Assembly: GCF_001677475.2 (NCBI RefSeq) | Contig: NZ_CP015229.1 | DNA from: Escherichia coli | Lineage (GTDB): Bacteria > Pseudomonadota > Gammaproteobacteria > Enterobacterales > Enterobacteriaceae | Length of the DNA stretch: 64,000 bases | Direction: 5' to 3' (one strand) | Part shown: positions 27,001 to 33,000 of the stretch, one piece after another | Numbering within the stretch: the stretch's first letter is position 1 | Layout: every line of letters begins with the position of its first letter | Position numbers: made by a program

Positions 27001-30000
27001 CGTCGAACTATAACCCGCAGACGCGGCAATACAGCGGTATCTGGGACGGAACGTTTAAACCGGCATACAGCAACAACATGGCCTGGTGTCTGTGGGATAT
27101 GCTGACCCATCCGCGCTACGGCATGGGGAAACGTCTTGGTGCGGCGGATGTGGATAAATGGGCGCTGTATGTCATCGGCCAGCATTGCGACCAGTCGGTG
27201 CCTGACGGCTTTGGTGGCACGGAGCCACGCATCACCTGTAATGCTTACCTGACCACGCAGCGTAAGGCGTGGGATGTTCTCAGTGATTTCTGCTCGGCGA
27301 TGCGCTGTATGCCGGTATGGAACGGGCAGACGCTGACGTTCGTGCAGGACCGGCCGTCGGATAAGGTGTGGACCTATAACCGCAGTAATGTGGTGATGCC
27401 GGATGACGGCGCGCCGTTCCGCTACAGCTTCAGCGCCCTGAAGGACCGCCATAATGCTGTTGAGGTGAACTGGATTGACCCGGACAACGGCTGGGAGACG
27501 GCGACAGAGCTTGTGGAGGACACGCAGGCCATTGCCCGTTACGGTCGTAACGTCACGAAGATGGATGCCTTTGGCTGTACCAGCCGGGGGCAGGCACACC
27601 GCGCCGGGCTGTGGCTGATTAAAACGGAACTGCTGGAAACGCAGACCGTGGACTTCAGCGTGGGTGCCGAAGGGCTTCGCCATGTGCCGGGCGATATCAT
27701 TGAAATCTGCGATGATGACTATGCGGGTATCAGCATCGGTGGTCGCGTGCTGGCGGTGAACAGCCAGACCCGGACGCTGACGCTCGACCGTGAAATCACG
27801 CTGCCATCCTCCGGCACCACGCTGATAAGCCTGGTTGACGGAAATGGCAATCCGGTCAGCGTGGAGGTTCAGTCCGTCACCGACGGCATGAAGGTGAAAG
27901 TGAGCCGTGTTCCTGACGGCGTTGCAGAATACAGCGTGTGGGGGCTGAAGCTGCCGACGCTGCGCCAGCGCCTGTTCCGCTGCGTGAGTATCCGTGAGAA
28001 CGACGACGGCACGTATGCCATCACTGCCGTGCAGCATGTACCGGAAAAAGAGGCCATCGTGGATAACGGGGCGTACTTTGACGGCGACCAGAGCGGCACG
28101 GTGAATGGTGTCACGCCGCCAGCGGTGCAGCACCTGACCGCCGAAGTCACCGCAGACAGCGGGGAATATCAGGTGCTGGCGCGCTGGGACACGCCGAAGG
28201 TGGTGAAGGGCGTGAGCTTCCTGCTCCGTCTGACCGTAACAGCGGATGACGGCAGTGAGCGGCTGGTCAGCACGGCCCGGACGACGGAAACCACATACCG
28301 CTTCAGGCAACTGGCGCTAGGGAACTACAGGCTGACAGTCCGGGCGGTAAATGCCCGGGGGCAGCAGGGCGATCCGGCGTCGGTATCGTTCCGGATTGCG
28401 GCACCGGCCGCGCCTGTCACTATTGAACTGATACCGGGGTATTTTCAGATAACGGCGGTCCCGAAACTGGCTGTATATGACCCGACGGTACAGTTTGAGT
28501 TCTGGTTATCGGAAACGCGGATTATCGATATCAGGCAGGTTGAAATCAGCGCGCGTTATCTTGGTACGGCGCTGTACTGGATAGCCTCCGGACCGGATAT
28601 TGAGCCGGGCAATAATTATTATTTTTACGTTCGCAGTGTGAATACCGTCGGCAAATCGGCATTTGTGGAGGCTGTTGGCCAGCCGGGTAACGATGCTGAG
28701 AAATATCTCCATTTTTTTGAAGGGAAAATAAACAGCACCCTGCTGGGGCAGGAGCTGAACGATCGTATTAATGCCTCGGCATTGCGCAGTGAAGTTGAGC
28801 AACTGGAGGATGAGATCAATCAGCAGATAGAGAGTGATATTGCTGAAGTGACCCAAAAAATCGGGGAGACAGAAAACAGCCTCACACAGCTGGTTGCGAA
28901 AAAAAATGATGAGCTGTCACTGGGTATATCACAGGTGAGCCAGAGAGTGGATAACGTCAGCAGCGAACTCACGCAGACGGTCAGTCAGAGTAATGAGGAG
29001 AATGCACGCCAGATAGCGCAGGTTCGCCAGTATGTGGATCAAAAAAGCAGTGAAATCATGACGACAACGGACCAGAAGCTGGGAGATCAGGAGGCCACCA
29101 TCCAGCAGATACAAAAGGTTCAGACGGACACCAGTAATAACCTGAACAGTATGTGGGCCGTGAAACTGCAGCAGATGCAGGATGGTCGCCTTTATATTGC
29201 GGGTATCGGTGCCGGTATTGAGAACACCCCTGACGGTATGCAGAGCCAGGTGCTGCTGGCGGCAGACAGGATTGCGATGGTTAATCCTGCGAATGGTAAT
29301 ACAACACCCTTGTTTGTGGCTCAGGGGGATCAGCTGTTCCTGAATGAGGTTTTCATGTCCAGGGCGACGATTGATTTTGCGGAAATTACGGGGGTTCTTC
29401 GTTCTTCGGGATTTGAAGTCAGGGGACAGGGAGGCTGGGATCTGAGCCGGGAACTGAACTGCTTCAGGGTCGATGATGAAAACAATGTCATTCGGGTGAG
29501 AATGGGCAGGTTATTCTGAGGAGCGAATATGTCATTGCAATATGGCTGGCAAATCATGGATGCAACGGGCAGGGTGGTTACGGATACGTCTGCAATTATG
29601 TGCAGACGTTTATTCTCATATCATGTTCCGATCATTGAAGCACTGGCATCAAATATCCCGTGGTCAGTGACATTTGGTGTCAGTTTTAACAATGGAACCC
29701 CATTCACACATTGTGTGACACGGAAGGGGATTACGGTGCCTTCCGGCAGGGTATGGTATCCGGTGGCACCGGATATTATCATCAACGGTAACAGCGTCAC
29801 CTTAACCTATACAGCAAGACATGTTTCATATCCTGATGATTTGGGGTATCTCCTGGCTGTTGGCGGTGTGGATGTTCATTGTGGGGTTTACCACCGATGA
29901 GCGGTTATGGCATTCAGCTAATTAATGACTATGGACTGACAGTGGCAGATGCGGAAGATGTGAATTATGTTTTGCGAAGTGCCGGTCAGTTCAGTAATGG

Positions 30001-33000
30001 TCATTTTATCTCCGGCGGGAACACGACGAGCGCAATCAGTCTGATAACAACCGGAATGAACAGTCCTTTATTGTTTCTGAAGATGAATACAAATAATTCG
30101 AGGCTGACACAAAAAACCGGGGTCAATAAGCTGTCCCCTGATTTTGTTAATCCCGGAACATATATATCGGTGACAAGTATAGACGTGTTTAAATGGTGGA
30201 ATATAAATATTGGCACGGTTCAGTATTATATTTTTGACAAGTGGATACCGCCGGAGCGAAGTTCATACGGTATGCAACTGTTTGACGGTTCAGGAGGAAT
30301 TATATTTGATTCCGGGTGGTATTTTCTGAAATTACGGGATGTGAAATGGCTTGAACCGCAATATCCAAACCATTCAGGGCATGAGAGCGGTAGTAACTGG
30401 AGTAATGTCGGGCATGTTTCCGATGATGTCAATAACACAGCATTATCAATGCCTCTGGGCAGGGGCTGGATTGAGTCATCCTTACAGGGTGGATATTACT
30501 ATAATGAGTGTTGTCATCTTGACGGTAACGGTAATCTCTATATATCCATAATACCGACAGGTGTTTATCTCGATATATCACCGACAGGAGGCTGGGTTGG
30601 CTCAATGAAAACCCAGGTCATGGTTGCGGATGTATCCGGCTTACCGACGAATTATAACCCTGTGGAGATAAGGAACGTTAACGGTTAAGTGCTGTAACGA
30701 AATCACGGCAAAATGAAACAGAAAATCTGAATGTAATCACAGCCCGCCGGAACCGGCGGGCTTTTTTGTGGGGTGAATATGGCAGTAAAGATTTCAGGTG
30801 TCCTGAAGGACGGAGCGGGTGAGCCTGTCGTAAACTGTGCGATTGAATTGCGTGCCAGAAGAACCAGTCCGACAGTTGTGGTTAATATTGTGGCAACCTG
30901 TCTTACGGGAAGTGATGGCGGGTATACTATTAATGCTGAGCCGGGATTTTATGATGTATTTTTGTCCCGCTCAGGGCATCCTCCTGTAAAGGCGGGGGAA
31001 ATTTATGTTGCACCGACAGATGAGCCGGATACGCTGAATGCTTTTCTGGATGCACCAAAGGAGGGTGATTTACGCCCTGAGGTAATGAAGCGTTTTGAGG
31101 AAATGATAAATACCGTTTTTCGCTTGTCTGAGCAGGTGGTCAGTGACAGGGAGAGAGCAGAAACAGCTGCTGATGATGCAATCAATGCAGCAACATCTGC
31201 GGCGGTTAGTAAGGATGAGGCAGAAGAGCTAAAAAATCAGACACAGCAGAGCGCCGAAGCTGCAGCCGGAAACGCACAGCAGACGGCACAGGATGTGACG
31301 ACAACCGCAACGGCCCGTGATGATGCGGAACGTTTTGCGGGTGAGGCAGAAAACAGCGCACAGTCATCAGGCACAGCGCGGGACGAATCAGTCGATGCCG
31401 CCGAACGCGCCCGCCTTTATCATAATGCCGCATCATCAGCAGCGACCAGTTCAGAACTGTCGGCAAATGCGGCGCTGGGGCACAAAAACAGTGCCGCCGA
31501 ATACGCCCGACAGGCTAAAGCCAGCCAGGATGCAGGTGCAGACAATGCGCAGGAAGCGAAACAGTACAGGGATGAGGCGCAGCAGATAGTTGATGACCTG
31601 AATGCAACAAATGCCTCCACGACAGAAAAAGGTCTGGTGCAACTCTGTAGTGATACGGACAACGACAGCGAGGAACTGGCTGCCACGCCAAAGGCTGTCA
31701 AAACCGTCATGGACGAGACGAAAACAAAAGCGCCACTGGACAGCCCGGCCTTCACCGGCACCCCAACCACCCCAACCCCACCGGATGATGCCGCCGGTCT
31801 GGAAGCAGCGAACGCAGCGTTTGTGCGCAAACTGCTTGCTGCGCTGGTTGGCTCATCACCGGAAGTTCTGGACACCCTGAACGAGCTGGCAGCGGCGCTG
31901 GGTAATGACCCGAACTTTGCGGCCTCAATGATGAATGCGCTGGCAGGCAAACAACCGCTTAATGACGTCTTAACGGCAATCAGCGCACTGACGCAACGGG
32001 CAGATAATCTTCTGTACTTCAATACAGACGGGAATGCCTCACTGTCTCTGCTGTCAGAGAAGGGCCGCGCATTACTGGCGCATGACACGGCTGAAGCCAT
32101 GCGCACGGAGCTTGAGCTGAACGCGGCTGCGACGATGGAACCCCAGAGTGATATCCGTGACCGCACACCGGGCAGGCTGGCCCTGTCCGGGATGTATGGG
32201 TTTGGACAGGCATTCACCAGAGCCGAAGCTCTGTCATTTAACGGACAGGCTGATTTCGTTATATGGCTGCAGACAGTCACACCGGGGCGTTATGCGGTCA
32301 GTATTGCGGACTCTTCCACGCTGCTGAAGGGGACCACGAAATTTAACGGTATCATTGATGTGATGTGGTCACCGTCTGATAACGACGAATCAGACACGGC
32401 GCGTAAATTCAAAACGCTGCTGTACTACAACCAGTATTACGAGGATGAGCACAACATACATTGCATGCGTTATCATTACAGTGATAACACCTGGACCGCA
32501 ACATCAAACATGATTGTGTATGACGGCAACTCCCTGGCATATCTGATGTCCTCAACCGCCGGTAATGGTCCGTTCTCATATTACCAATACCCGGCACTTG
32601 GCGTGCCGATTATGGCGGTATATCAGGGAGAAAGTTTTGGTGAAAATGCTTCTCTGGGACTCGGTGATACTGTGCCGGGTTCCCGTCTTGGTCCTCTGGC
32701 CATGAGTGCACCGGTTAGTGATACAGGGACATACGCATCCTCACCGCAGGTTGTGATTGGCGGTGCCGGTGAATACAACTTCCCCGGTCGTTACACGGCG
32801 CTTTCGGGCCTGGGTAACAATTATGGTACTCAGCGTGGCTTTATCGGTCTTTTTGTACGCATTGAGTAATGAGGAAATCAGGCATGAAAATCAGAGCGGT
32901 GAAAGGTATCAGAAACGCACATTATCTTGAAAATGGTGCGGTTGACTGCGAGGTGTTATTTGAAGGTGAAACGGAGTTCGTCCTGTATACCGCCATACAG

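Follow-up and report, generated by a model that had tools for sequence, protein, structure and literature searches.

What do two small genes lying between the tail genes J and stf contribute to a lambdoid prophage of Escherichia coli? The question was addressed in a stretch of 64,000 nucleotides from contig NZ_CP015229.1 (RefSeq assembly GCF_001677475.2), referred to below as the window, in which two overlapping open reading frames (ORFs), named ORF1 and ORF2, occupy the J-stf interval. The evidence argues, with good confidence, that the tip of J, ORF1 and ORF2 form together a horizontally exchangeable host-recognition module, that is, a receptor-binding protein (RBP) module of the T1-like type. 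That the receptor is specifically FepA, a proposal made by analogy with a related phage, has about an even chance of being right; taken as a whole, an RBP module with FepA as its most probable receptor is probably the best explanation of the locus. Loci of this type are already known from T1-like siphophages. The one in the window belongs to the least-studied allele, the IME253/FepA type, here transplanted onto a lambda-type J in a lambdoid prophage. An earlier note on this DNA, made from the sequence alone, had recognized the two ORFs; it missed that the cassette and the final ∼49 codons of J belong together in a single module, which replaces the receptor-binding domain (RBD) of lambda.

ORF1 (29529-29900, plus strand) starts at an ATG and codes for 123 aa, while ORF2 (29897-30688, plus strand), also with an ATG start, codes for 263 aa. 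The stop codon of ORF1 and the start codon of ORF2 share the four bases ATGA at 29897-29900. A mechanical ORF list begins ORF2 at a TTG at 29879, which would give 269 aa. The ATG at 29897 is preferred, since an M-S-x-Y-G N-terminus at this position is conserved in 21 ORF2 homologues and the RefSeq gene model uses the same start. The gap between the end of J and ORF1 is only 9 nt, and a GGAG Shine-Dalgarno sequence is found 6 nt ahead of the ORF1 ATG. No promoter-like site was detected on the plus strand ahead of ORF1 or ORF2; the sole such site in 29000-31000 is on the minus strand, within ORF1. The J-ORF1-ORF2 unit is closed by an intrinsic terminator on the plus strand (30741-30770; stem-loop at 30741-30762 followed by a T-run tail) with a 9-bp stem containing eight G-C pairs and a 4-nt loop, which also marks the right-hand junction of the module. 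The coordinates and the stem-loop thus bear out the earlier description of a 123-aa and a 263-aa ORF with an ATGA overlap, placed between J and stf and ending at a strong terminator. The same note called ORF2 rich in G, S and N; these residues are indeed enriched, but only mildly so (G 11.8%, S 10.3%, N 9.1%).

Both ORFs are under strong purifying selection. Comparison with an 85%-identical allele from E. coli A25 gave ratios of non-synonymous to synonymous substitution rates (dN/dS) of 0.09 for ORF1 and 0.036 for ORF2, with a dS of about 0.7-1.0. Further, the order J, ORF1, ORF2 was kept in 17 of the 17 loci examined in a synteny survey (the window, phage IME253, Klebsiella phage VAC2 and 14 loci from a scan of IMG/VR). 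Since dN/dS is low and the pair is maintained in all related loci, ORF1 and ORF2 are functional genes, neither remnants nor chance ORFs, and the idea that they might be degraded leftovers can be set aside.

The gene J (26265-29519, plus strand) codes for a central tail fibre or tail tip protein of 1084 aa that is lambdoid up to about residue 1035. The J of the window and that of the lambdoid phage ev099 are 84% identical through residue 1035, where similarity ends. Past this point, the ev099 J continues with an RBD of ∼200 aa, followed by lom, which confirms the earlier statement that lambda-like relatives carry lom at the corresponding position. The J of the window instead ends after a tip of 49 aa, and ORF1 and ORF2 come next. 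This J therefore has no lambda-type C-terminal RBD and carries a T1-type tip; in line with this, it aligns end to end with the J of the T1-like phage IME253. From position 30732 onwards, a segment that comprises the terminator and the start of stf, the sequence is ∼93% identical to that of many lambdoid phages, some of which have the terminator annotated there. Since similarity breaks at residue 1035 of J and resumes at 30732, the exchanged unit is taken to span approximately 29370-30731, and to include the J tip, ORF1 and ORF2. The J tip segment (29370-29519, plus strand; the last ∼49 codons) forms the left end of this unit and is the presumed docking site for the ORF1 and ORF2 products. The GC content is ∼60% in the core of J and 42-48% in the cassette.

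A natural swap with the same boundaries can be seen in T1-like phages. J is nearly the same protein in IME253 and in Rtp, which carries the LptD-type locus: identity is 98% over ∼1060 residues, and only the final ∼45 aa diverge. Within the central fibre, the two phages differ solely in the J tip and the locus downstream. A similar C-terminal hairpin ends J in every cassette-bearing locus and in T1, Rtp and IME347. The hairpin of the T1 J reads VRDASGRLRVQIGRL, and the J of the window ends in a similar one. The possibility that the J tip is specific to a receptor class was considered and rejected, the terminal hairpin being generic across receptor classes. The RefSeq/PGAP annotation of two strains (that of the window and E. 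coli A25) has J as a pseudogene 'missing C-terminus'. This call is probably an artefact of comparison with the lambda-type J, since J is full length for a T1-type architecture that relies on separate RBPs.

A separate feature of J is its coiled-coil stalk (∼28770-29150, residues ∼837-960), which is 73 residues longer than that of the ev099 J and has a lower GC content, of ∼48-50%. The long form of the stalk is also present in some other lambdoid phages, for example PhiR49_2.

The position of the cassette, directly 3′ of J, is that of a locus with a documented role. 'Bona fide RBP loci' immediately downstream of gpJ were described in Drexlerviridae, Dhillonvirus and Queuovirinae by Maffei et al. 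2021 (PMC8594841), where the allelic variants of the locus correspond to the terminal receptor used, non-covalent attachment of the RBP to the J-like tip is assumed and an exclusion protein often adjoins the RBP. The genome-wide screens of a recent preprint (10.64898/2026.04.02.716166) confirmed for the receptors FhuA, BtuB, LptD and YncD that the specificity for the terminal receptor is set by this locus, and reported accessory proteins co-localized with it. The same work used comparative genomics to infer the receptors of four temperate phages; for three, the inference drew on this locus, while the LamB assignment of the fourth presumably drew on GpJ itself. Finally, cryo-electron microscopy showed that the locus-encoded RBP of phage Oekolampad binds LptDE, and Rtp45 was shown to be the exclusion lipoprotein (10.1101/2025.07.07.663478).

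Searches for family membership were in part uninformative. Neither protein matched Pfam (even at an E-value of 10), NCBIfam or PADLOC, and therefore neither matches Lom/Ail, in agreement with the earlier statement that no recognized family is represented; Rfam detected nothing in the region. In PHROGs, ORF1 was weakly assigned to phrog_2427 and ORF2 strongly to phrog_4062, both of them families of unknown function, and no PDB sequence was significantly matched by a profile of the ORF2 family. Prediction of signal peptides, lipoboxes and transmembrane segments gave none in either protein; the maximum Kyte-Doolittle scores over 19 residues were 1.18 for ORF1 and 1.05 for ORF2.

Profile-profile comparison was more productive. 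The ORF2 family aligned with that of T1 gp31 by hhalign with a probability of 91% and an E-value of 9e-7 (ORF2 residues 1-152 against gp31 residues 1-138), while the C-terminal halves of the two proteins could not be aligned. This pattern, an alignable N-terminal half and a divergent C-terminal half, is the one expected for a modular RBP in which the half attached to the tail is conserved and the half in contact with the receptor varies. The family of T1 gp31 and N15 gp23, phrog_425, matched only residues 89-149 of ORF2 (E 0.0046). Since there is no full-length profile match and the hhalign alignment is limited to the N-terminal half, ORF2 is a remote relative of phrog_425, not a member. As regards structure, the only protein to which ORF2 showed a strong fold match is an established RBP, and the fold of ORF2 is that of the LptD-type RBP family (Rtp44/RBP_Oeko, phrog_1265). 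The fold matches of ORF1 were weak and limited to generic beta-sandwiches. A phmmer search with ORF1 found giant Calx-beta repeat proteins (1052-3168 aa; E-values of 1e-8 to 4e-4, six stretches in each). These were discarded as a functional clue, the resemblance probably being that of generic beta-sandwiches.

ORF1 and ORF2 can be aligned with each other only over a 25-residue motif. An N-terminal motif, M-x-(x)-(Y)G-h-x-h-x-D/N-x-x-G, is common to ORF1, ORF2, T1 gp32, T1 gp31, Rtp44 and the IME347 proteins, and it is repeated mid-chain in ORF2 and in T1 gp31. To judge from the sequences, this motif and the J hairpin may constitute a common docking element.

Together, the synteny with J, the loss of the RBD, the profile homology to gp31 and the fold match to an RBP favour the tail accessory or receptor-binding role that the earlier note had offered as one of its options. 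The host-recognition module would work as follows. The J trimer, devoid of an RBD of its own, would end in a short conserved beta-hairpin tip. ORF2 would be made in the cytoplasm together with the late tail proteins and would dock, presumably non-covalently, on this tip. There it would act as the terminal RBP, its conserved N-terminal half attaching to the tail and its more variable remainder contacting an outer-membrane beta-barrel. ORF1, predicted to be a small, all-beta protein of the beta-sandwich type that is made in the cytoplasm, is always co-inherited with ORF2 and translationally coupled to it; it could be a tip adaptor, an assembly factor or a second subunit of the RBP complex. The most likely division of labour is thus that ORF2 serves as the RBP and ORF1 as a tip adaptor or co-factor.

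The receptor in this mechanism would be FepA, the TonB-dependent transporter of ferric enterobactin. It is proposed because ORF2 is 75% identical to the cognate protein of IME253, a phage that needs FepA and TonB according to knock-out, adsorption and complementation experiments (Li et al. 2019, PMC6499177). In IME253, this dependence on FepA most plausibly maps to the ORF1/ORF2-type cassette, since within the central fibre the J tip and this locus are all that sets IME253 apart from Rtp, a phage with the LptD-type locus. The identity to the IME253 proteins, 75% for ORF2 and 65% for ORF1 at 100% coverage, exceeds the >30% that marks a shared receptor in the preprint cited above (10.64898/2026.04.02.716166), where RBPs more than 30% identical at full coverage share a receptor with no exception so far. 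As a side observation, each of the three examined loci with a link to a TonB-dependent transporter (T1 with FhuA, IME347 with YncD and IME253 with FepA) encodes a small protein of ∼100-125 aa paired with a large one of ∼215-265 aa, while the LptD locus has a single RBP of ∼310 aa.

Several points weigh against the proposal of an RBP module directed at FepA. The link to the receptor depends on a single phage, IME253; a literature search for receptor data on Rao1, TR3, phiA2-1 and ZL19, which bear the same locus, found none. At the sequence level, hhalign gave no significant match between ORF2 and the LptD-type RBP family (E 0.19), and phrog_1265 was not matched. The similarity of ORF1 to T1 gp32 is weak, with a probability of only 26%. 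Lastly, no exported small ORF is present between ORF2 and stf in the window. A sequence link to the Rtp44 family was also sought for ORF1, T1 gp31 and T1 gp32, and was rejected for these proteins as it was for ORF2, none of the matches being significant.

The alternative that survives best retains the tail-tip RBP module but assigns it a receptor other than FepA, for example another TonB-dependent transporter, the divergence of 25% from IME253 reflecting a change in specificity. This is a possibility to be kept in mind, if a lesser one. The substitutions relative to IME253 are spread along both proteins, IME253 is the only phage with this locus whose receptor is known, and single residues can switch the receptor in other RBPs, according to the same preprint (10.64898/2026.04.02.716166). 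However, an identity of 75% over the complete ORF2 is far above the published same-receptor threshold, and the cassette family is restricted to Enterobacterales, in which FepA is conserved.

It is unlikely that ORF1 and ORF2 are instead structural or assembly accessories of the tail tip, such as chaperones or caps for J or stf, recognition being left to J or stf themselves. The location in the late tail operon and the coupling to J would suit such a role, as would the weak and generic fold matches of ORF1, and some T1-like J proteins do carry specificity domains of their own for TolC, LamB or NupG (10.64898/2026.04.02.716166). Yet J stops 49 aa past the point where the RBD would start, and the hairpin in which it ends is a generic one, common to different receptor classes. 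The receptor-locus types of IME253 and Rtp differ while their J proteins are identical up to the tip, and the one strong fold match of ORF2 is to an RBP. As to stf (30773-32869, plus strand), which encodes the side tail fibre and lies outside the module, it has its own chaperone in tfa, the stf assembly protein (32869-33456, plus strand, also outside the module); in other phages that bear the cassette, the lateral fibre gene is far from it, either elsewhere or on the opposite strand. An accessory or chaperone role devoid of specificity is possible for ORF1 and unlikely for ORF2.

That the two genes are a moron, coding for membrane-associated proteins of lysogenic conversion or superinfection exclusion tied to Cor-type exclusion, was the other option of the earlier note and would fit the PHROG labels of the T1 homologues, the presence of the moron lom at the same position in lambda, and the role in exclusion or the Cor system assumed in the paper on phage KanT1 (PMC13164509), but it is highly improbable given the absence of export signals, hydrophobic segments and PADLOC matches in both proteins, the lack of a plus-strand promoter-like site ahead of the pair, its translational coupling to J in many loci, its presence in virulent Drexlerviridae, the fold match of ORF2 to an RBP, and the separate small exported protein that fills the exclusion role in IME253, T1, Rtp and IME347. 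The labels 'membrane protein' and 'moron' given to the T1 homologues are probably misleading, as no supporting evidence was found either for them or for the assumption made in the KanT1 paper.

The cassette is rare. It is present in seven of 5426 complete E. coli genomes and, out of 5.8 billion, yielded no more than 23 protein clusters (90% identity). With tblastn, homologues of ORF1 and ORF2 were detected in nine phage records, the same nine for each protein, and the two always adjoin. These include the virulent E. coli Drexlerviridae IME253, Rao1, TR3, phiA2-1 and ZL19 (n = 5; 65% identity for ORF1, 75% for ORF2), the Klebsiella phages VAC2 (a Webervirus) and VLCpiS8a, and one Brenneria phage. 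The pair lies directly 3′ of the J homologue, with the same ATGA-type overlap, in IME253, phiA2-1 and VAC2, and the J stop codon overlaps the ORF1 start in many of the 17 loci. Since the locus is obligately tied to J in virulent phages, its function is in the virion and not in lysogenic conversion. A nucleotide search of phage genomes gave no match to the cassette at the DNA level, the only matches being to the terminator and the start of stf. Downstream of the cassette, the E. coli A25 prophage (locus L022, 7440-8420) has other tail-fibre genes than the window, and after these nleB2, which encodes a type III effector, and an IS2 element.

Between the tail genes I and J, the window contains a lipoprotein gene (25848-26198, plus strand) with the lipobox LTGC, a mature product of ∼95 aa assigned to phrog_914 (function unknown) and a GC content of 34.5%, as compared with ∼58% in its flanks. 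It was considered as the cognate exclusion factor of the module and rejected: it is found in 336 of the 5426 complete E. coli genomes, against seven with the cassette, and it is absent from two IMG/VR loci with an identical cassette. Being carried by so many genomes, it is a separate moron that is not tied to the cassette.

The prophage appears to be complete. It lies between potC, on the integrase side, and potB, on the tail side; the potABCD operon is therefore split by its insertion. The genes potB and potA are at 33691-35674 of the window, on the tail side of the prophage, while potD, potC and the integrase gene lie to the left of the window (NZ_CP013662.1, 1326220-1329342). Besides the chromosomal copy of the anti-adapter gene iraM near icd, there is a paralogue of this gene on the prophage (∼7510-7845, minus strand; coordinates taken from RefSeq).

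The proposed module yields a testable receptor prediction, FepA together with TonB, for a lambdoid prophage that is carried by clinical and food-borne strains of E. coli. It would extend genome-based receptor prediction, since the FepA-type allele is not among the 19 classes of the largest receptor-screen data set, that of 10.64898/2026.04.02.716166, and FepA does not appear in the text of that work either. Exchangeable RBP modules of the T1 type would also enter classical lambda-type tails, where they replace the RBD of J and lom at a precise junction that should be useful for host-range engineering. Two annotation errors are indicated as well, the pseudogene call on J and the labels of the T1 homologues. 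A bolder interpretation, advanced here only tentatively, is that the pair is a distinct two-subunit tail-tip adhesin in which ORF1 uses the hairpin motif to fit a monomeric RBP onto the trimeric J tip, that the RBP families described as 'unrelated' form one ancient superfamily, and that with this prophage a temperate lambdoid coliphage is for the first time predicted to use FepA for entry.

Among known systems, the closest is the locus of vB_EcoS-IME253 (Rtpvirus), also present in Rao1, TR3, phiA2-1 and ZL19. Its two genes, their order and their ATGA overlap are those of the window, its J ends in a tip of the same kind, and its ORF2 homologue belongs, as ORF2 does, to phrog_4062. However, IME253 is a virulent T1-like phage, while the window holds a temperate lambdoid prophage. 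In addition, in IME253 the pair is directly followed, on the opposite strand, by a gene for a 61-aa Cor-like lipoprotein (locus L004, 6810-6995, minus strand; lipobox LAGC, with a weak match to the Cor family phrog_1119, E 0.002) that the window lacks. A small lipoprotein gene likewise comes directly after the ORF2 homologue in another locus (L019, 5334-5588, minus strand). These small lipoproteins are likely to be the cognate exclusion factors of the FepA-type locus. ORF1 and ORF2 themselves do not belong to the Cor/Llp class of exclusion lipoproteins, as they have no lipobox, hydrophobic N-terminus or PADLOC match, nor to the Lom/Ail class, having neither a Pfam match at an E-value of 10 nor a signal peptide.

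In T1 (locus L005, 28607-29601), J (gp33) is followed by the 101-aa gp32 and the 229-aa gp31, the start of which overlaps the gp32 stop codon, and then by cor on the opposite strand. The same arrangement of a small and a large protein after J, linked to the use of FhuA, is found in N15 (gp22/gp23), HK022 and phi80, and also in ES18, so that pairs of the T1 type likewise occur in temperate lambdoid phages. The T1 pair differs from that of the window in belonging to PHROGs 425 and 557 (4062 and 2427 in the window), in the unrelated C-terminal half of the large protein, in its receptor (FhuA) and in the presence of cor. The YncD-dependent phage IME347 (locus L041, 29715-31096) also has a small and a large protein, of 102 and 216 aa, encoded beside J. 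The small one shares phrog_2427 with ORF1, and hhalign supported the relationship over the N-terminus with a probability of 80%. In this case, however, the genes are on the opposite strand, a third, secreted protein of 112 aa is present, and no relationship of the large protein could be detected beyond the short motif.

The LptD-type RBPs (Oekolampad/Bas18, PDB 9rpt chain C; Rtp44) differ in organization, consisting of a single protein of ∼310 aa with LptDE as its receptor and no small partner; in Rtp, the gene is on the opposite strand and the exclusion lipoprotein is Rtp45. T5 pb5 (with Llp) and the pb5-like RBP of the FepA-dependent T5-like phage H8 provide a functional analogy only: pb5 is a monomeric RBP that is held non-covalently at the end of the straight central fibre and targets a TonB-dependent transporter. 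The C-terminal domain of the lambda J, together with lom, occupies the same genomic position as the module and, at the tip of the tail, recognizes the terminal receptor, as is proposed for the module. In lambda, however, the RBD is contained within J and lom is an unrelated outer-membrane moron, whereas in the window the RBD has been replaced by separate proteins.

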